Source: a virus
DNA length: 64,000 nt
Reading direction: 5' to 3' (one strand)
IMG/VR virus record: IMGVR_UViG_3300009155_000044
Location: 56,074-120,073 of that record
Every line of letters begins with the position of its first letter. The first letter of the stretch is position 1. The notes beneath the pieces were generated by a model that ran no database searches, was not told where the DNA came from, and saw nothing but the letters and a program-made list of their open reading frames with translations. Shown in pieces: positions 26,352 to 53,506 of this stretch. The position numbers and the translations under genes are program-made.

Positions 26352-29129
26352 ATGGAAAAAAATATTTACTGGCTCAATGCAGATTCTCGCAAATTTTTAA
26401 GCAGCGGTTATTTGATGGACGGCGAAACTGCTGAGCAGAGAATATCTGATGTTGCACAAACAGCAGAAAGTCTTTTATCTGTAAGCGAGGATTGTATTAC
26501 TAAAGTTAATGATTACCTCAAATGCAAAAGTTTTGCTGAGAAGTTCGCAGACTATCTTGAGCGTGGATTTTATTCATTATCATCTCCTAATTGGTCAAAC
26601 TTTGGCAGAAAAAGAGGTCTTCCAATTTCTTGTTTTGGAACTTATCTAGAAGATTCTATCGAGTCTATTACTGGTCATAAACTTGCTGAAATCAGCATGA
26701 TGACAAAATCTGGGGGAGGCACTAGCGCATTTTTTGGCAATGTTCGTCCTAGAGGATCTAAAATTTCATCTGGTGGAGAATCAACAGGTTCAGTTCATTT
26801 TATGGAACTCTACGATAAGATGATGACTGTTGTCTCTCAGGGAAATACGAGAAGAGGAGCTTGTGCAATATATCTTCCAATTGATCATGGTGATATCGAA
26901 GAATTTTTAAAAATTAAATCAGAAGGAAATGATATTCAAGAACTCTCAATTGGAGTCTGCGTCACTAATAAGTGGATGCAGGACATGATTGATGGCAATA
27001 AAGAAAATAGAAGAATCTGGGGTCTTGTGATTCAAAAGAGATTTGAAAGCGGATATCCATACATCTTTTTCTCTGATAACGCTAATGATCAAGCCCCTCA
27101 AGTTTATAAAGATAAAAATTTAAAAATCAGTCATTCAAATCTTTGCGTCACTGGAGATCAAAGGGTTATTTCTAATTTTGGAATTTTAACGGCAAAAGAA
27201 CTCTATGAAAATGGAGATGAGTTAATTCTTTTTGATAATGAAAAAGAAGTAAAAGCATCAAAAATGAAATTAGTTGAGAAAGATGCTGATGTTTTTGAAA
27301 TTAAACTTGAGAATGGAATGTCGCATAAAATTACATCCTATCATAAAGTTTCTACAAAAGATGGGGATATAGCATGTCACGATTTAAAAATTGGAGATTC
27401 TGTTGCGGTTCAAACAAATAAGGGAATTTTTGGAAATAATGATATGACCAAAGAAGCATTTCTTCTTGGTTTATATCAAGCTGATGGAACTCAACATAAA
27501 GATTATATTATGATTGATATTTGGAGAAATGATTTTGATTTAATTGAAGAAGTTCAAAATGCTCATGATTTCGTATCTGATAAATATAAAACTCAAATTT
27601 CTCTCTATAATAATAGAGTTTATCAAAACGCTAGTTTTTGCAACTGTGTTGTTGCTGAAGGGTCTCATGAGAAAAAAAGACTATCTAGTAAAGCACTTAA
27701 AAAAGCATTGAATTTTGAAAAAGGATACGTTCCAGAATGGATCTGGTCGTCCAATGAAGAAACGCTATGGCAATACATTAGAGGTCTTTACTATGCAGAC
27801 GGAACTGTGTTTAAATCTAAATCATCTGGAGAACCACTTCAAATTTCACTAGCTTCAATTAACAAAGAATTTCTAGAAGAAGTGCAAATTATTTTAGCAA
27901 ATCTTGGAATGCAATCATCAATTCGCCTTTTAAGAGAAAGTTGTGAGTCGTTACTTCCTGATGGACATGGAGGAAACAAAATGTATAAAACTAAAACTGC
28001 TTGGAGATTAATTATTGGAAATAAAAATGATGCATTAGTTTTTAATAAAAATACTAAATTTCTTGATAGAAAAAATATTATTCTAGAGGATCGTGAATAT
28101 AGAGATAATACTAAAAAATTCTATAAAGTTTCATCTATTTCTAATATTGGGCAAGAGGATGTCTATTGTTGCACAGTAGAATCAAAATCTCATCACTGGA
28201 TCTGCAATGGAGTTGTTACTCACAACTGTAATGAAATAATGCTTGCTGATTCTCCAACAGAATCTTTTGTTTGTAATTTGTCATCTCTGAATCTGGATAA
28301 GTGGGAAGAGTGGAAAGATACTGATGCTGTTGAAACAATGGTATTTTTCTTGGATGCTGTCATGACAGAGTTTATTAATAAAACTGAAAACATGGCATTC
28401 ATGAGTCATGCTCGCAACTTTGCAATCAATCAGAGAGCGCTTGGTATTGGAGTTCTTGGTTGGCATTCACTACTTCAGTCTAAAATGATTCCTTTTGAAT
28501 CAATGGATGCTAAAATTTTAAATAACCAAATTTGGAAAACAATCAGAAATCGCGCCGATGTGGCTACTGAGAAATTAGCTGAAATCTATGGAGAACCAGC
28601 ATTACTTGAAGGATATGGTCGTCGTAATGTGACTACAATAGCTGTAGCTCCAACAGTAAGCTCAAGCTTTATTCTTGGTCAAGTCTCTCAGGGCATTGAA
28701 CCTTTAAATGGCAATTACTTTGTTAAAGGATTAGCTAAGGGCGATTTCTCTTATCAAAATCCCTATTTAGAAAAATTGCTAATTGAAAAAAATCAAAACT
28801 CCGCAGAAGTTTGGAAATCTATTTTAATTCGAGGAGGATCTGTTGCTCATTTAGATTTCTTGTCTGAAAATGAAAAAGCTACTTTTAAAACTTTTGGAGA
28901 AATCTCTCAGAAAGAAATTATCATTCAAGCCTCTCAACGTCAAAAATACATTGACCAAGGTCAAAGCTTAAACATCATGATTCCTCCTTCAGCATCTGCC
29001 AAAGAAGTTAATCAACTTATGATTTTTGCATGGGAACAAGGAATCAAAGGCTTGTATTATCAAAAGAGCGCTAATCCAGCGCAAGAACTAGCTCGCTCTA
29101 TTCTCAATTGCGAATCATGCCAAGCATAA
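26352..29129 (+). CDS. nrdA: Ribonucleotide reductase alpha subunit (no ATP cone) with intein
   Basis: PISCF, GGGTS, RRGA, SNL|CNEI finger loop split by intein, AVAPTVSSS, DQGQSLN, KGLYY, C-terminal CESC. Confidence 0.95.
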   Translation: MEKNIYWLNADSRKFLSSGYLMDGETAEQRISDVAQTAESLLSVSEDCITKVNDYLKCKSFAEKFADYLERGFYSLSSPNWSNFGRKRGLPISCFGTYLEDSIESITGHKLAEISMMTKSGGGTSAFFGNVRPRGSKISSGGESTGSVHFMELYDKMMTVVSQGNTRRGACAIYLPIDHGDIEEFLKIKSEGNDIQELSIGVCVTNKWMQDMIDGNKENRRIWGLVIQKRFESGYPYIFFSDNANDQAPQVYKDKNLKISHSNLCVTGDQRVISNFGILTAKELYENGDELILFDNEKEVKASKMKLVEKDADVFEIKLENGMSHKITSYHKVSTKDGDIACHDLKIGDSVAVQTNKGIFGNNDMTKEAFLLGLYQADGTQHKDYIMIDIWRNDFDLIEEVQNAHDFVSDKYKTQISLYNNRVYQNASFCNCVVAEGSHEKKRLSSKALKKALNFEKGYVPEWIWSSNEETLWQYIRGLYYADGTVFKSKSSGEPLQISLASINKEFLEEVQIILANLGMQSSIRLLRESCESLLPDGHGGNKMYKTKTAWRLIIGNKNDALVFNKNTKFLDRKNIILEDREYRDNTKKFYKVSSISNIGQEDVYCCTVESKSHHWICNGVVTHNCNEIMLADSPTESFVCNLSSLNLDKWEEWKDTDAVETMVFFLDAVMTEFINKTENMAFMSHARNFAINQRALGIGVLGWHSLLQSKMIPFESMDAKILNNQIWKTIRNRADVATEKLAEIYGEPALLEGYGRRNVTTIAVAPTVSSSFILGQVSQGIEPLNGNYFVKGLAKGDFSYQNPYLEKLLIEKNQNSAEVWKSILIRGGSVAHLDFLSENEKATFKTFGEISQKEIIIQASQRQKYIDQGQSLNIMIPPSASAKEVNQLMIFAWEQGIKGLYYQKSANPAQELARSILNCESCQA
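27144..28226 (+). mobile_element. Intein with LAGLIDADG endonuclease in NrdA (361 aa)
   Basis: Starts CVTGDQRV, ends VTHN before catalytic Cys(+1); motifs FLLGLYQADG and YIRGLYYADG. Confidence 0.93.
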
Positions 29130-44231: not shown

Positions 44232-46826
44232 ATGATCTACGATTATGAATTAGAAAAACAATTACTTGCAGCTTTAATCAAAGAGCCAGATGATTATTGT
44301 GAGATTTCTAATTTTATCAACTCTAGAGATTTTTATTCTGAGAATACTAATTTACACTCTTCAATCTTTTCAATCATCAAACAAGCTATTGATAAGAGCG
44401 AAGGAATTGACGAGGTTATTATTGCTCAGAGAGTAAATTCTCTAGGATTATCTTTTGAGGATAATGTTAATCCATCTGATTATATTAGATCTTTAGGAAT
44501 GCGAAAAGTTCCCAAAGGAAACCTAATTAAAACAGCCAGGGAGTTAAAAAAATACACAGTACGTAGAGAAATCTACGAGTCTGCTCGCGAAGTCGCCAAG
44601 AAAATGAAGGGCATTAGTCCTGATTCAACTTACACAGACATCATTTCTCAAGCAGATCAAATCTATAATTCTCGTATTAATTTATATGAATTAGGAAATG
44701 ATACTCCAGAAAATATTTACGAAGAGATGGAAGCTCTCGTTGAGGAGAGGGGAAACAATCCCGTTGTGGAATTCGGCATGATGGGTCCACATAAAAAAGT
44801 AAATCAAATCTACGGATCTCTTCTTCGCCCTGGCAATATCACTGTGATTGTTGCTAGAAGTGGCGTTGGTAAAATGAATCCATTATATACTAAAGTCTTA
44901 ACTCCAAATGGATTCGTTGAGATGAGAGATATTTTAGTTGGATCTGAAATTGTATGTCCAAATGGCAAAACTTCAAAAGTCCTTAAAACATTCGATCATC
45001 AACAAAAAGATATCTATCGCGTTACTTTTGAAGACGGAAGATTCTCCGATTGTGGTTTAGATCACTTGTGGAAAATTTATACAAGAAATAATAAAGGATT
45101 ATATCATTGGGAAGTATCTGATACTCAAAAGATAATTAATGACCTATCTCAAAAAAGTAAAAAAGTATTTATTCCATTAGTATCTGAAATCAATTCTATA
45201 GATAAGGAGTTTCTCTTAGATCCATATATTGTGGGAGCTTTAATTGGCGATGGCTGTTTGAGAGATGGTTTTGTTATAGAATCAGCTGATAGTTTTATTC
45301 CTAATAAAATTGAAAAGCTTTTAAAAGAAGACTGCGAAGTTTCAATTAGAGAAAGCTCGAAAAGCCAGTCTAAAACTTATAGATTTTTTACTTCAAAAGG
45401 GGGATCTTTTAAAAATCCACTCATAGAGCATTTAAAAGATTTAAATCTTTATGGTAAATTATCTTATGATAAATTTATTCCAGAAGAGTATTTCTACGGA
45501 TCTTTTAATCAGCGTTTAGATCTTCTGCAAGGTTTAATGGATACAGATGGAACTTTGAGCAAAAGCAGGGGAAGAAATGGAGATTCATGTAGCTATGGAG
45601 GATTAAGCTACTCTACATCTAGCAAACAATTATCAACAGATATCCAGCGCTTGATCTGGAGTCTCGGAGGAAAAGCTAAAATCTCCGAAAGAATTTCAAC
45701 ATATAAAAATAAAGATGGAGAAAAAGTCAATGGAGCTATTTCTTATAGTGTTAGAATTAGAATGCCAAATCCAAAAGATGCATTTTCTCTTCCAAGAAAG
45801 AAAGATTTGGCTCTAAGTAAAGAAAATTATCAATACTCTAATCTAAAACTAAGAATATCTAATATCGAAAAATTAGAAAATAAAGAAGATTGCCGCTGTA
45901 TTGAAATTGAGGATGGCGAACATTTATATATTATCGATGAGTTTATTGTTACTCATAATACTCAATTTTGCATGGATTACAGTACCAAGGTTGCTGTTAA
46001 ATATAGCATTCCAGTATTGCACTTCGACAATGGAGAAATGAGCAAAGAAGAACTCATTATGCGGCAATGTGCTGCACTCTCTGGAGTTCCCATGCATTTG
46101 ATTGAAACTGGCAACTGGCGCAAAGCTGGACAAGAAGTGGTTGATAAAATTAGATCAGTCTGGAGCCAAGTTAAAAATCTCCAGTTCTACTACTACAATG
46201 TTGGTGGCATGGATGTTGATAGTATGATTAAAACTCTCAAGCGTTTTTATTATGGAAAAGTTGGTCGAGGCAATAGAATGATCTTCTCGTTTGACTATAT
46301 TAAAACTACTTCCGAATCTGGAGGAGGAAAGAATGAGTGGCAAGTTGTTGGTGAGATGGTGGATAAATTTAAAAAGTGCGTTCAAAAGGAAATCTTGTAT
46401 GATGGAAATCCCATCATTCCCATGATCACTTCAGTTCAATCTAACAGAAGTGGAATTACAAACAACCGAAACTCCTCTAATGTTATTGATGATGAAAGTG
46501 TAGTTTCTCTTTCTGATCGAATTACTCAGTTTTGCTCTCACATGTTTATTCTTAGAAACAAAACTGCTGATGAAATTGAATCTGAAGGTCGTAATTTTGG
46601 AACTCATAAACTCATCAACGTTAAAGCTAGACATCTTGGTCAAGATATTGCTGGAGCAGTTGAGCCTATTAGAATTGGAGATGCTCTTAGAAAAAATTTC
46701 ATCAATTTAGATTTCAAAAACTTCTCCATTAGCGAGCGAGGTGATCTTCGTGATATTGCTAATTCAATGGATACAAATGGAGAATTAGAAACCGATGAAG
46801 ACGATGACCTGCCAAGTTTCCGTTGA
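44232..46826 (+). CDS. dnaB: Replicative DNA helicase with intein
   Basis: ARSGVGK|T Walker A split by intein; FDNGEMS, FDYIK, SVQSNR, SDRITQF, KAR. Confidence 0.92.
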   Translation: MIYDYELEKQLLAALIKEPDDYCEISNFINSRDFYSENTNLHSSIFSIIKQAIDKSEGIDEVIIAQRVNSLGLSFEDNVNPSDYIRSLGMRKVPKGNLIKTARELKKYTVRREIYESAREVAKKMKGISPDSTYTDIISQADQIYNSRINLYELGNDTPENIYEEMEALVEERGNNPVVEFGMMGPHKKVNQIYGSLLRPGNITVIVARSGVGKMNPLYTKVLTPNGFVEMRDILVGSEIVCPNGKTSKVLKTFDHQQKDIYRVTFEDGRFSDCGLDHLWKIYTRNNKGLYHWEVSDTQKIINDLSQKSKKVFIPLVSEINSIDKEFLLDPYIVGALIGDGCLRDGFVIESADSFIPNKIEKLLKEDCEVSIRESSKSQSKTYRFFTSKGGSFKNPLIEHLKDLNLYGKLSYDKFIPEEYFYGSFNQRLDLLQGLMDTDGTLSKSRGRNGDSCSYGGLSYSTSSKQLSTDIQRLIWSLGGKAKISERISTYKNKDGEKVNGAISYSVRIRMPNPKDAFSLPRKKDLALSKENYQYSNLKLRISNIEKLENKEDCRCIEIEDGEHLYIIDEFIVTHNTQFCMDYSTKVAVKYSIPVLHFDNGEMSKEELIMRQCAALSGVPMHLIETGNWRKAGQEVVDKIRSVWSQVKNLQFYYYNVGGMDVDSMIKTLKRFYYGKVGRGNRMIFSFDYIKTTSESGGGKNEWQVVGEMVDKFKKCVQKEILYDGNPIIPMITSVQSNRSGITNNRNSSNVIDDESVVSLSDRITQFCSHMFILRNKTADEIESEGRNFGTHKLINVKARHLGQDIAGAVEPIRIGDALRKNFINLDFKNFSISERGDLRDIANSMDTNGELETDEDDDLPSFR
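44874..45959 (+). mobile_element. Intein with LAGLIDADG endonuclease in DnaB P-loop (362 aa; Met1, WCT class-3 signature)
   Basis: Starts MNPLYTKVLTPNG; block B CGLDHLW; block F CRCIEI; ends VTHN|T; YIVGALIGDG and LLQGLMDTDG. Confidence 0.9.
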
Positions 46827-48930: not shown

Positions 48931-49683
48931 ATGCTCGCTCTCTTCAAATCCAGTTGTTCTATTGGACGCAGTATCCTAACTCTAAATGATCCTAATAATT
49001 GTCATGAGAATGGACCAGATAGCATTTTCTCCATTGCTGTTGAGAATGATTTAAAAACAGTTACTCTTGTGGAAGATTCCATGGTTGGATTTTTCGATGC
49101 ATTTAGAATCAGTCAAGCTCTTGGAATTCAATTGATTTTTGGATTACGATTCTCCTGCTGCGATCAGCTTGATAGTCTAACATCTAATCATAAATTAATT
49201 GCATTTGCTAAAAATGATCAAGGATGTAAAGACTTGTACAGTCTCTACTCTAAAATTTATGTTGATTTTAATGGCAAAATTACTCATGAGCAATTGCAAT
49301 TAGCATGGACTGATAACTTAAAATTAGCTGTTCCATTCTATGATTCATTCATTCATCAGAATAATTTTTACTTTCAAAGCTGCATTCAAGAGTTTGGAAA
49401 TATTAAGCCAGTCTTTTTTATAGAGTCTAATAATCTTCCATTCGATGATGCTCTGGAAAGAGAAGTTTTAAAATTTACTGAAAACGGCAAAAAGTTTGAA
49501 GTGCAAAAAACTAAATCTATTTATTATAAAGATAAGTGCGATGTAGAAGCTTTTCAAACTTATAAAATTATTTGTAATCGAACCTTTGGTCGCCAAGCTA
49601 CACTGTCCTCTCCTAATCTAAATCACTTCGGAAGTGATGAGTTTTGTTGGGAATCTTATCTAGAACAAACTAATGAACGATAA
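48931..49683 (+). CDS. Stand-alone PHP domain of DNA polymerase III alpha
   Basis: FKSSCSIGRSIL, LVEDSMVGF, LIFGLRF, KLIAFAKNDQGCKDL. Confidence 0.75.
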   Translation: MLALFKSSCSIGRSILTLNDPNNCHENGPDSIFSIAVENDLKTVTLVEDSMVGFFDAFRISQALGIQLIFGLRFSCCDQLDSLTSNHKLIAFAKNDQGCKDLYSLYSKIYVDFNGKITHEQLQLAWTDNLKLAVPFYDSFIHQNNFYFQSCIQEFGNIKPVFFIESNNLPFDDALEREVLKFTENGKKFEVQKTKSIYYKDKCDVEAFQTYKIICNRTFGRQATLSSPNLNHFGSDEFCWESYLEQTNER

Positions 49684-50305
49684 TCTACTTCGCTTTAATA
49701 ATTCTCAAAAATATATAGCACTCGACACTGAGACAGAAGGACTAAATCTAGTAAAGTCTAGACCATGGCAAGTTGCGTGGATTATTGCAGAAGGCAAACA
49801 AATCAAATCCAAGCACAGTCACTTTATCAAGTGGCCGAATCTAACAGTATCTGAAGGTGCTGCTAAAGTTACTGGATTCTCCATGGAGAAATATGAAAGA
49901 CTCGCAGAAGATCCAATGGAAGTTTTTAATAAGCTAAAGCCTTATCTTTACAATCCAGAGTATAAAATAATTGGGCAGAATCTTCTGGGGTTTGATGTTT
50001 ATATGATTAATATCTGGAGAAAAGAAATGGGATTAAAATCAGACTACTCTTTCATTGATCGAATCATTGATACTAAATCAATTGCTGCTGCAATCTTTAA
50101 AAATATTTGGCCCGATAAGAGCAACTTTACTAGCTGGCAATATAAACTTCTTCATGTTAAAGAGAAGGGTCTTAAAACATCTCAATTGACCTTGCTCAAG
50201 CATTATGGCATCTCATTTGATCAGAGCAAGTTGCACGATGCCCTTTACGATATTGAAATGAACTTCGATATTTTCCTCAAACAAATTTACGACATTGAAA
50301 TATGA
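49673..50305 (+). CDS. DEDDh 3'-5' exonuclease (Pol III epsilon-like)
   Basis: ALDTETEG, GQNLLGFD, IDT, LHDALYD. Confidence 0.88.
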   Translation: MNDNLLRFNNSQKYIALDTETEGLNLVKSRPWQVAWIIAEGKQIKSKHSHFIKWPNLTVSEGAAKVTGFSMEKYERLAEDPMEVFNKLKPYLYNPEYKIIGQNLLGFDVYMINIWRKEMGLKSDYSFIDRIIDTKSIAAAIFKNIWPDKSNFTSWQYKLLHVKEKGLKTSQLTLLKHYGISFDQSKLHDALYDIEMNFDIFLKQIYDIEI

Positions 50306-52086
50306 TTACTAGTTTTTCTCCTTACAAAAGTCCATTTCCAGCGGGGGTTAAACTTCCAGAAATTCGTGTAGATCAAAAATACTACGATCTTCTTGGATGC
50401 CAATCAAGCATTTCTAATTTTAACTTTTTGCGCAAGCTTTGCTTTGAAGGCGTTAAGAAGAGAAAAATTGACGAGCTTCCAAACAAGCAAGTTTATTATG
50501 AAAGATTAACAATGGAACTGTCAATCCTAAAGGAATTAGGATTCATTGATTATATTCTTTTGAATTGGGATGTTATCAACTATTGTCATGAGAATAAAAT
50601 CCCAGTGGGTGCGGGGCGTGGAAGTGCTCCAGGCAGTTTAGTCCTGTATTGCATCTCAGTTACAAACATTGATCCAATCAAATACGATCTCTTCTTTGAA
50701 CGATTTGTTTCTAAAAGCAGAGCTAAAATCATTGAAAGCGAAGGAGAGATTTATCTAGACGGATCTCTTCTCGCAGACATTGATAATGACATTAGTTATG
50801 AGCGCAGAAATGAAGTGATTGAATATATTAATAATAAATACAAAGGAAAAACTTCTAAAATTCTCACAATGAACACTTTGAGCGGCAAGCTTTGTGTTAA
50901 AGAGTGTGGAAAAATTGTTGCTGAAATGTCAGAAACAGAGGTGAACATCATTAGTGATTCTATTCCCAAAAAGTTTGGAAAAGTTTTCAAGCTAAAAGAT
51001 GCTTTTGAAGAGAGCGAAGTTTTTAAAACTTTCGCCTTATCTCACAAAAAAGTATATACCATTGCCAACAAACTAGAGGGTTTGAATAAGAATACTGGAG
51101 TTCATCCTTCAGGAATTGCAATTAGTTTTTATAATCTTCCAGACATTATGCCAATCCAAAAGACTGGCGAAGATGCTATTGTATCTGGATACGACATGAA
51201 CAGCGTCTCAGCATTAACTGTTAAATTCGACATCTTAGGACTTAGAACTCTGTCGGTAATTCATGATGTTTGTTCTATGATCGGAATTAACGTGGACGAC
51301 ATTAATGTTGAAGATCCTAGCATTTATGCAGCGATGCAAATCTTGAAAAGTCCCAAGGGATTGTTTCAAATTGAAGCTGATACGAACTTTCGAGTAGCTC
51401 AAAAAGTAGCTCCGAAAAATCTTCAAGAATTATCTGCTGTTGTAGCCTTAGCGCGACCTGGAGCTTTAGACTTTGTTGATCGTTATGCAGACTATTCTCG
51501 CACTGGAGAGTTTCAATCTATTCATCCATTCTTTGATGATGTGCTTTCATCTACTGGTGGATTATGTTTATACCAAGAACAAACACTTCAAATGTGTAAG
51601 AAAATTGGATTCAGCTTGGATGAAGCTGAACAGCTTAGAAGAATTATTGGCAAAAAGAAAGTTGATCAAATGGTTGTCTGGCAAGATAAAATTAAAAATA
51701 AAATTATAGAAAATGATCTAGATCCAATTGTTGGAGATGTTTTTTGGAAGGTTGCATCAGACTCTGCAAATTATAGTTTTAATAAGTGCATTTTTGAAGA
51801 AGAGACGGTTGAATTAGATTCGGGAGAAATAAAAATGTTGAAAGATATTAACTATGGAGATTATATAAAAGCTTTCGATATTCAAAACGAGCAGGATCAT
51901 TATGTTCGAGTATTAGATATAGTGAAAAATGAAAAAGAAATTTTTGAATTTGAAATGGAGAATGGGGTTTCTATCAAATGCTCTATGGAGCATAAGTTTT
52001 TATGTGAGCATGATTTAAAAATGCATCCTATTAAAGATATCCTTGAAAATAATTGGCTAATTATGTGTAATAAGAATATCATTTAG
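50302..52086 (+). CDS. dnaE: DNA polymerase III alpha N-fragment fused to split-intein N half
   Basis: GRGSAPGSLV, FERF, ADIDNDI, HPSG, KFDILGL, LYQEQ, YSFNK|C; stops after the intein N half. Confidence 0.93.
   Translation: MITSFSPYKSPFPAGVKLPEIRVDQKYYDLLGCQSSISNFNFLRKLCFEGVKKRKIDELPNKQVYYERLTMELSILKELGFIDYILLNWDVINYCHENKIPVGAGRGSAPGSLVLYCISVTNIDPIKYDLFFERFVSKSRAKIIESEGEIYLDGSLLADIDNDISYERRNEVIEYINNKYKGKTSKILTMNTLSGKLCVKECGKIVAEMSETEVNIISDSIPKKFGKVFKLKDAFEESEVFKTFALSHKKVYTIANKLEGLNKNTGVHPSGIAISFYNLPDIMPIQKTGEDAIVSGYDMNSVSALTVKFDILGLRTLSVIHDVCSMIGINVDDINVEDPSIYAAMQILKSPKGLFQIEADTNFRVAQKVAPKNLQELSAVVALARPGALDFVDRYADYSRTGEFQSIHPFFDDVLSSTGGLCLYQEQTLQMCKKIGFSLDEAEQLRRIIGKKKVDQMVVWQDKIKNKIIENDLDPIVGDVFWKVASDSANYSFNKCIFEEETVELDSGEIKMLKDINYGDYIKAFDIQNEQDHYVRVLDIVKNEKEIFEFEMENGVSIKCSMEHKFLCEHDLKMHPIKDILENNWLIMCNKNII
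51787..52083 (+). mobile_element. Split intein N-fragment (99 aa)
   Basis: CIFEEETVE (block A), GDYIKA, IKCSMEHKF (block B); strongly acidic; no C-terminal HN/SN. Confidence 0.9.
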
Positions 52087-52355
52087 TATATTTTTCTTTA
52101 GATTTTGCATTTCCTGAATTTAAAATTGCAATCGAATGCCAAGGAACTTATTTTCATATAGATCCTCGATTCTATCCAAATGGACCATCTGGGAAAATAC
52201 AAAAAAGAAACTTTGGAAGAGATAAATCTAAGAAAAAATTTCTTGACAAAAAGGGTTGGACTATGATAGAGTTATGGGAGACTGAAATAAATAACGAAGA
52301 ATTTAAAAATATTTTAACATGCAAGCTACAAGAATTAAATCTTTTAAACAATTAG
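52074..52355 (+). pseudogene. 5'-truncated Vsr/DUF559-like free-standing homing endonuclease between split-intein halves
   Basis: Frame after TAA TAA reads EYHLVYFSLDFAFPEFKIAIECQGTYFHIDP...RDKSKKKFLDKKGWTMIELWETEI...LLNN*; no start codon; overlaps both dnaE halves. Confidence 0.85.
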
Positions 52356-52432
52356 GTATTAAAAAAACTATTGATTTGGAAGTCGATTCCATTGATCATA
52401 ATTTTTATCTTAAAAACTTAATTACATCAAAT
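52319..52432 (+). mobile_element. Split intein C-fragment (38 aa)
   Basis: Block F/G DLEV...HNFY...TSN followed by Ser+1; basic N-terminal half. Confidence 0.9.
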
Positions 52433-53506
52433 TCACATTCGATTTCATATGCGAATCTTGCAGCTATTACAATTTATTTAAAATTCAATTATCCACAACA
52501 GTTTTATTTGAGTCTCTTAAAGTACGCTCAATTTGAACCAAATCCCCATGAAGAAATCTCGAAAATAACACAAGAGCTTCCATTGTTTGGCATCAAGCTT
52601 TTAGCTCCAGACTTGGCTCAGTCTGAAATTGATTTTAAAATTCAAGGAAACGATATTCGTTACGGATTAAACTCTATTAAAGGAGTGTCTACTAAATCAT
52701 TAGAGAGTTTGATTGAGTTTCGCGAAGGGCAGTTCAATAACAAGTACGAGGTCTTTTTAGCTGCCAAGCAAGCAGGGCTTAATATTGGCGTCTTATCCGC
52801 TTTGATTCAAGCTGGGGTACTTGATCACTTCTTGAATAAAGACCGCTGTAGGCTTGTCCTAGAGGCGCAGGCGTTCAACCTACTCACTGACAAGGAGAAG
52901 CGTAGCGTGATAGCTCTTGGAGAGCGCTTCAACTATGATGTTTTGAAGTGCATTCACGAATGCACAACTCAATCTCTTGTAGACGATAACAATAAATTAA
53001 TCTTTTCGGAAAAGAGATTCACCACTTTTAAATCAAAATACGAACCATACAAAGTAATTTATGAAAAAAATCATAAACACTTAAAATTCGCTAATTGGTA
53101 TTTTGAAACTAAGCTACTGGGATACAGTCACTCTACAAACATTAGAGAAGTTTTTACTGAAAACTCTGGAGAAACATTAATTTCTTCTAGTGGAATTTCT
53201 GAGCTTGGAAACAATGAAAAAATTAAATTTGTCGGAACTGTGAGTGATGTAACCTCTAGAACTAGCGCGAGAGGAAATAAATATGCTAGATTAGAAATGT
53301 CTGATGAATCTGGAAATTTGACAGGACTCATGATGGATTCTACGCAAAATGCAACATACTCTAATTTTCTTCAATCTGGCAAGGCTCTTCCCAAAAAAGG
53401 AGAAGTTATCATCTTGACTGGAAGAAAAAGCAATGATATCATCAGCATCAGTAGCCTCTCGCCCTTAGAAGATAAAATTTATATGAAGCTATCTGATATA
53501 AAGTAA
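52319..53506 (+). CDS. dnaE: Split-intein C half fused to DNA polymerase III alpha C-fragment
   Basis: MQATRIKS...TIDLEVDSIDHNFYLKNLITSN|SHSISY; YGLNSIKGV HhH; ETKLLGYS; OB fold. Confidence 0.93.
   Translation: MQATRIKSFKQLGIKKTIDLEVDSIDHNFYLKNLITSNSHSISYANLAAITIYLKFNYPQQFYLSLLKYAQFEPNPHEEISKITQELPLFGIKLLAPDLAQSEIDFKIQGNDIRYGLNSIKGVSTKSLESLIEFREGQFNNKYEVFLAAKQAGLNIGVLSALIQAGVLDHFLNKDRCRLVLEAQAFNLLTDKEKRSVIALGERFNYDVLKCIHECTTQSLVDDNNKLIFSEKRFTTFKSKYEPYKVIYEKNHKHLKFANWYFETKLLGYSHSTNIREVFTENSGETLISSSGISELGNNEKIKFVGTVSDVTSRTSARGNKYARLEMSDESGNLTGLMMDSTQNATYSNFLQSGKALPKKGEVIILTGRKSNDIISISSLSPLEDKIYMKLSDIK

Follow-up and report, generated by a model that had tools for sequence, protein, structure and literature searches.

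Fractured genes with split inteins were described from ocean and lake metagenomes by Dassa, London, Stoddard, Schueler-Furman and Pietrokovski (2009; PMC2677866), who reported 26 such loci, three of them in DnaE genes (DnaE-1, -2 and -3) with split-intein sites unlike the cyanobacterial one. The host gene's two halves lie side by side on the same strand with their order preserved, and one part of the intein is fused to each; at the DnaE loci a free-standing nuclease gene of a Vsr-like family lies between them, its 3' end overlapping the open reading frame (ORF) that starts with the C-terminal intein half (IntC) by 6-69 bp. In the model proposed by these authors, loss of the endonuclease is a step toward permanently separated halves (PMC2677866). 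The Vsr-like family first found in fractured genes is known as EDxHD, and its prototype is I-Bth0305I (PMC3239194; PDB 3R3P).

Here we describe a 64,000-nucleotide (nt) window of DNA from an uncultured phage, bases 56074-120073 of the 120,073-bp IMG/VR virus record IMGVR_UViG_3300009155_000044, in which dnaE, the gene for the alpha subunit of DNA polymerase III, carries such a split intein at a non-cyanobacterial site; coordinates below are those of the window unless a locus is named. A preliminary description of the window had read this region as a fractured dnaE at a late stage, and its coordinates and sequence strings all proved correct. Our explanation, which we hold with considerable confidence, is that the phage dnaE has been fractured by a naturally split class-1 intein, that the polymerase is most likely restored by trans-splicing, and that the nuclease encoded between the halves was lost through a 674-bp deletion. 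In its layout the locus resembles Dassa DnaE-1, -2 and -3, with the same host gene, adjacent intein halves in the same order and a non-cyanobacterial site, and it differs from them in that the nuclease gene is reduced to its last 93 codons. Both the description and the model given by Dassa et al. (2009) accommodate the locus, whose one new element is the decay of the nuclease. Novikova et al. (2016) do not mention DnaE under that name.

The split dnaE gene and its insertion site

The polymerase core is encoded on the plus strand by ORF1 (50302-52086, 594 amino acids (aa)) and ORF2 (52319-53506, 395 aa). ORF1 opens with an N-extein of 495 codons (50302..51786) that comprises the palm, the thumb and part of the fingers, matches the Pfam families DNA_pol3_alpha (6e-62) and finger domain (3e-30), and ends in ANYSFNK. 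It continues into the N-terminal intein half (IntN; 51787..52086, plus strand), 99 codons and a stop, with a first Cys, a block B that reads S-M-E-H, and matches to the Pfam families Hint and Intein_splicing that span ORF1 residues 488-588. ORF2 starts with a 38-codon IntC (52319..52432, plus strand; M-Q-A-T-R-I-K-S ... D-H-N-F-Y-L-K-N-L-I-T-S-N), followed by a C-extein of 357 codons (52433..53506, plus strand) that begins at the +1 Ser (SHSISY), contains the HhH and OB regions and matches Pfam HHH_6 (8e-17). The length of 38 residues for IntC is as proposed earlier. The match to the polymerase profile phrog_405 stops at ORF1 residue 495 at profile position 793 and restarts at ORF2 residue 38 at that same position. 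IntN is acidic, again as described, with a net charge of -11, and IntC carries +2. The halves of the Npu DnaE intein have the same charge polarity, acidic in IntN and basic in IntC. The solved relatives nearest to IntN are the Npu/Ssp DnaE inteins (3e-4), and the best solved relative of IntC is Npu DnaE IntC (4qfq_B).

The boundaries of the insert are fixed by intein-free alleles. A scan of viral contigs yielded 10 related loci, which we compared with pieces of the window by tblastn. Nine of them are intein-free and encode both extein parts on adjacent codons of one frame (YSFNKSHS), at 95% identity to the window in L003 and L004 and at 61-75% in L005-L010 and L012. Because these alleles join the exteins on adjacent codons, the insert is exactly ORF1 Cys496 to ORF2 Asn38, a precise in-frame insertion, and joining the two halves restores YSFNK-SH, as had been anticipated. 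In alignments with solved structures, the end of the N-extein falls on E. coli DnaE K758 and Taq K815, and the start of the C-extein on the consecutive residues S759 and S816.

The site is therefore not the cyanobacterial integration point, in agreement with the preliminary description. The cyanobacterial split lies at AEY|CFNK, four residues upstream of the FNK|SHS site at E. coli K758|S759. One published account (10.1101/196105) names KFAEY and CFNKS as linkers of the DnaE intein. The two inteins have several features in common: both are class-1 split inteins of similar size in the same host protein, with an acidic IntN, a basic IntC and no penultimate His. Besides its site, the window intein differs from the Ssp and Npu inteins in having Ser rather than Cys at +1, in the adjacency of its halves, which lie at distant loci in cyanobacteria, and in retaining a nuclease remnant.

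All the residues expected of class-1 chemistry other than the penultimate one, which we discuss below, are in place and conserved. More than 20 cluster representatives of about 590 aa carry DnaE-N and IntN at this same site, with 42-96% identity in the IntN region. These alleles all keep the first Cys, block B S/T-x-x-H, D-H-N-F, a terminal Asn and a +1 Ser: the nucleophilic Cys stands directly after FNK in the window as in every allele, block B has an invariant Ser and His in the allele alignment, and the terminal Asn is followed by +1 Ser (T-S-N|S-H-S) in every allele examined. By the Nei-Gojobori method, used where synonymous divergence (dS) is not saturated, the ratio of nonsynonymous to synonymous divergence (dN/dS) is 0.06-0.2 for IntN and IntC, the same range as for the exteins, and the ratio of nonsynonymous to synonymous differences per site (pN/pS) is 0.10-0.27 for IntC. 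Both intein halves are under purifying selection. Conservation and dN/dS together support a working split intein, from which trans-splicing is inferred.

In the mechanism that we propose, a class-1 split intein (Cys1 ... Asn|Ser+1) entered the fingers domain at the point where the conserved FNK and SHS meet, ORF1 and ORF2 would be translated separately, and the acidic IntN and slightly basic IntC would associate. Trans-splicing, the most likely outcome, would then yield a polymerase core of 852 aa (495 + 357 aa). It is conceivable that the halves have lost splicing and do no more than keep the DnaE pieces in non-covalent contact, a state known from fractured genes that have no intein, Aeh1 nrdA among them (Gibb and Edgell, cited in PMC2677866). 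Genes of that kind can be functional (PMC2677866; PMC3045599). However, the residues invariant across alleles that are just 42-55% identical in the IntN region include those for the splicing chemistry, beyond those for association. The fracture also interrupts the conserved FNKSH motif of the fingers domain, and an additional stretch of about 137 residues at that point could be expected to upset folding. We therefore give purely non-covalent assembly very little credence.

The split itself also needs to be weighed. IntN, the nuclease remnant and IntC each occupy a reading frame of their own, and the frames overlap at 52074-52086 and 52307-52355, such that two single-base shifts would fuse them. 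If two frameshifts, or errors in sequencing or assembly, had disrupted a contiguous, nuclease-containing intein, the same picture could in principle arise, the polymerase being in truth a single ORF or a pseudogene. Against this, at least 19 other contigs, obtained from various samples and with various assemblers, show the three-ORF layout, each with its own IntN stop, nuclease ATG and conserved IntC start, and alleles that have lost the nuclease are still split. A fused reading would, moreover, still be without the N-terminal two thirds of the nuclease, and the extein dN/dS of 0.03-0.055 between the window and L011, a closely related locus from another metagenome, speaks against a pseudogene. 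Conservation of the layout across samples and assemblers led us to reject a frameshifted contiguous intein, an explanation that we regard as having next to no chance of being correct.

The nuclease remnant and the 674-bp deletion

The gap between the intein halves holds a 93-codon stop-to-stop frame (52074-52355, plus strand) that corresponds to codons 224-316 of a 316-codon, free-standing EDxHD/Vsr-like homing endonuclease gene. The frame has no ATG, GTG or TTG before a Met at 52263, matches homing-endonuclease PHROGs (E = 5e-10) and gives weak Pfam matches to MTES_1575 and DUF559. Profile searches of the two ORFs and of this peptide against Pfam and PHROGs thus returned the polymerase, intein and homing-endonuclease families that the preliminary description had predicted. 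The remnant is the 3' third of the gene and starts partway through the first strand of the nuclease domain, without the preceding helix (203-214), the whole DNA-binding region, including the N-terminal NUMOD region, or a start codon. Judged by what is left of its sequence, it cannot encode an active enzyme. It overlaps the IntC ORF by 37 nt (52319-52355), within the 6-69 bp reported for fractured genes, and to the same extent as in L011.

L011 is the intact sister allele. Its N-extein is 98% identical to that of the window, it has the same IntN (98% identical) and IntC, and between the halves it carries the complete free-standing endonuclease gene that the window no longer has, an intact 316-codon ORF (L011:7778-8728) that begins 1 nt past the IntN stop and shares 37 nt with the IntC ORF. 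A comparison with related contigs had been called for, and it supplied both this allele and the nine intein-free ones; it also upheld the view that the gap encodes a Vsr-like endonuclease deprived of its start and N-terminus. The L011 protein has a NUMOD3 motif at residues 174-188 and, toward its C-terminus, a Vsr-like domain that belongs to the I-Bth0305I (EDxHD) family, and full-length homologues of about 300-330 aa form at least 120 clusters, several of which the Joint Genome Institute (JGI) has named very-short-patch-repair endonuclease. Single-sequence and profile searches of the nuclease against solved structures gave nothing meaningful; only fold comparison reached Vsr and I-Bth0305I. 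An AlphaFold2 model of the L011 nuclease, built with 59 homologues, has a mean predicted local distance difference test score (pLDDT) of 92, and Foldseek ranks two PDB entries first for it, E. coli Vsr (1cw0_A) and the I-Bth0305I catalytic domain (3r3p_A; template modelling score 0.81 on the target), with E-values of about 2e-3. On this model, the L011 nuclease has the Vsr-like fold. The catalytic residues D233, E244, H251 and D273 are invariant in the 59 homologues, and all four are kept in the window remnant. The DnaE-2 nuclease of Dassa et al. (2009), modelled over positions 196-315 (PMC2677866), fits the 316-aa L011 protein. I-Bth0305I shares with the latter an N-terminal NUMOD region followed by a C-terminal Vsr-like domain, as well as conserved acidic and His residues; it differs in that its gene sits within a recA group I intron and that its motifs are NUMOD2, whereas the L011 protein is free-standing in a split intein and has NUMOD3, and the window holds the C-terminal fragment only.

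Alignment of the window DNA with both sides of L011 shows that the window is L011 minus 674 bp, a length given by the distance from the IntN start to the IntC ATG, which shrinks from 1206 nt in L011 to 532 nt in the window. The junction, TGTAATAA|GAATATC, lies between 52073 and 52074 (52072..52075, plus strand), with a 2-nt AA microhomology and no longer repeat at the breakpoint. From IntN the deletion took the closing base of its final codon and the stop, and from the nuclease gene the ATG and codons 1-223; the last four IntN codons of the window (K-N-I-I) and its stop are products of the deletion. IntN tails vary naturally across the intein family, and for this reason the new tail is likely to be without much effect. 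The remnant is identical to L011:8447-8728 at 277 of 282 nt, which indicates that the deletion is recent. A search of the 120-kb record with the L011 protein matched residues 222-316 alone, with no copy of the missing part elsewhere in the record; that part was therefore lost and not moved.

We infer that the ancestral cassette contained the free-standing EDxHD/Vsr-like endonuclease gene between the intein halves, with the NUMOD region N-terminal and the nuclease domain C-terminal, and that the enzyme would have cut intein-free alleles, whose repair would copy the cassette in. By taking the nuclease start and the first 223 codons, the 674-bp deletion would have ended homing and left a polymerase that still depends on splicing.

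Across the cassette (51766-52523) the window and L011 share 96-99% nt identity, with a dS of 0.14 in IntN and no synonymous differences in IntC, and the flanking exteins are more diverged (dS 0.27-0.30). The contrast is modest; it would fit a transfer of the cassette after the window and L011 lineages had diverged.

Three observations weigh against the explanation put forward here. The penultimate residue of the intein is Ser, not His, and is kept in all alleles seen. The deletion junction was not found by exact pattern search in other accessible viral or metagenome contigs. Finally, the protein cluster table has the 594-aa ORF1 product with its deletion-specific tail on 2 contigs, with JGI/IMG and Logan as its two sources, and these entries may share one sample. 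With regard to the first point, the penultimate residue of the Npu/Ssp DnaE inteins is likewise Ser. The second and third bear on whether the deletion could have arisen during assembly or could represent a minority variant, the dominant genotype having an intact nuclease gene as in L011. In favor of such an artefact or variant, an exact look-up found the 594-aa protein in no other accessible gene call, and heterogeneity of the cassette is evident among contigs that are 95-98% identical. On the other hand, the junction has a microhomology of 2 nt only, with no flanking repeat to collapse an assembly graph, the deletion-specific product is on record from two sources, and comparable deletions occur in relatives, for example in L027. 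Overall, we judge it improbable that the deletion is an artefact or a minority variant, although this is the alternative to which we would grant the most room.

The split alleles without any nuclease gene (L027 and L029) suggest that the C-half can be expressed without one, and expression of the C-half in the window after the deletion is probably normal. A promoter and terminator scan of 51700-52500 found 7 promoter-like sites against 5.0 expected, a result that carries little information; one of the sites, TTGACA-18-TAGAGT at 52243-52272, lies upstream of the IntC ATG. Shine-Dalgarno sites are scarce in this phage (4 of 37 long plus-strand ORFs), and since they are rarely used, the A/T-rich start region of ORF2 is normal for it.

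The replication module and other intein-type inserts of the phage

The virus record is about 93% complete by CheckV estimate, and the window has a GC content of about 32%. The replication module runs in the order DnaB helicase, primase-like gene, PD-(D/E)XK nuclease, PHP-domain ORF, DnaQ-like exonuclease, DnaE core and ClpB-like ATPase. The preliminary description had placed the polymerase III alpha subunit in two ORFs. This holds for the core, which is split over ORF1 and ORF2, but the PHP domain of the DnaE-type polymerase is encoded by a further ORF (48931..49683, plus strand; Pfam PHP 6e-6, phrog_405 positions 62-265), and the gene for a DnaQ-like 3'-5' exonuclease (49673..50305, plus strand; Pfam RNase_T 3e-10, phrog_192 9e-22) stands between it and the core. 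The starts and stops of these three genes overlap by 11 nt and 4 nt (48931-50305). Their order, which resembles the domain order of PolC, is kept in all relatives examined, with extra small ORFs between the PHP ORF and the core in L016. The whole 120-kb record, about 93% complete, contains this one DnaE only, and no family A or family B polymerase (PolA, PolB) was found in it, which speaks for the split gene being essential to the phage. Elsewhere in the window, the segment 30000-42000 has a GC content of 20-27%, compared with about 32% in the remainder, and contains a run of closely spaced plus-strand ORFs.

Two further genes carry intein-type inserts. The DnaB helicase ORF (44232-46826, 864 aa) has a 362-aa insert (about 44874-45959) inside its Walker A motif (GVGK|...|TQF), with a LAGLIDADG domain. 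Its first residue is Met rather than Cys or Ser, a Trp follows the block B His, block F contains a Cys and the insert ends in T-H-N, a pattern that class-3 inteins show. L011 and L003 lack the insert and read GVGKTQF. The large subunit of ribonucleotide reductase (26352-29129) is interrupted at its conserved SNL|C motif by a contiguous 361-aa intein (about 27144-28226), which includes a LAGLIDADG endonuclease and terminates in V-T-H-N|C. With one insert each in dnaE, DnaB and ribonucleotide reductase, the phage has three intein-type inserts in genes of replication and nucleotide metabolism.

Alleles at the dnaE site and the origin of permanently split genes

To place the window among its relatives, we surveyed 21 further intein-bearing loci at the same dnaE site. 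A Vsr-like nuclease gene on the same strand is present at 12 loci. At L015 (L015:5763-6590), L026 and L028 the split is occupied instead by a GIY-YIG gene on the opposite strand, an assignment that Pfam confirms for L015, and at L035 (L035:2016-4364) an HNH nuclease is fused in frame to IntN. L030 has a contiguous mini-intein of 132 aa, and the intein is also contiguous in protein P0025. L027 and L029 are split and have no nuclease gene, only spacers of 27 nt and 13 nt, respectively; at L032 the C-half lies outside the fetched locus. In L027 the final ~17 codons of the Vsr-like gene persist in a second frame, which marks this locus as a more advanced deletion of the same cassette. The 232-nt spacer of the window falls between the intact and the nuclease-less states. 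L027 and L029 exhibit still more complete loss of the nuclease, which supports the earlier view of the window as a late-stage fractured gene.

Taken with L011, L027, L029 and L030, the window may represent step IV of the Dassa model, the shedding of the endonuclease, caught in progress. According to this interpretation, which we offer tentatively and hold to be somewhat less than evenly balanced, the window would be an intermediate on the way to a stable, nuclease-free split intein like that of cyanobacterial DnaE, and the 3' end of the dead gene would have been retained on account of the C-half start region that it contains.

An origin specifically in the DnaE intein of cyanobacteria was also considered and found to be unsupported, given that the site differs and that gp41-1 is at least as close to L030, the contiguous member of the family. 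Over its full length L030 matches gp41-1, its best solved match, at 1.7e-9 and DnaE inteins at 3.6e-8. The gp41-1 split intein, from a phage-like metagenomic helicase, resembles the window intein in its Cys1/Ser+1 chemistry, short halves, phage origin and fractured-gene context. It differs in its host gene and insertion site, and in that it ends in His-Asn, whereas the window intein ends in Ser-Asn.

The suggestion that the intein pair could serve as a protein-ligation tool is plausible, and the pair is a candidate for that use, a value that is not specific to the window locus since dozens of alleles of the intein exist. With this locus the pool of candidates grows by one Cys1/Ser+1 split-intein pair, of which many natural variants exist. 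Neither this pair nor the series of alleles alters existing knowledge of inteins. What the series provides is a natural snapshot, at one site of one gene and among close phages, of empty, intact, decaying, nuclease-less and contiguous alleles, and as such it supports the published model for the origin of permanently split genes.

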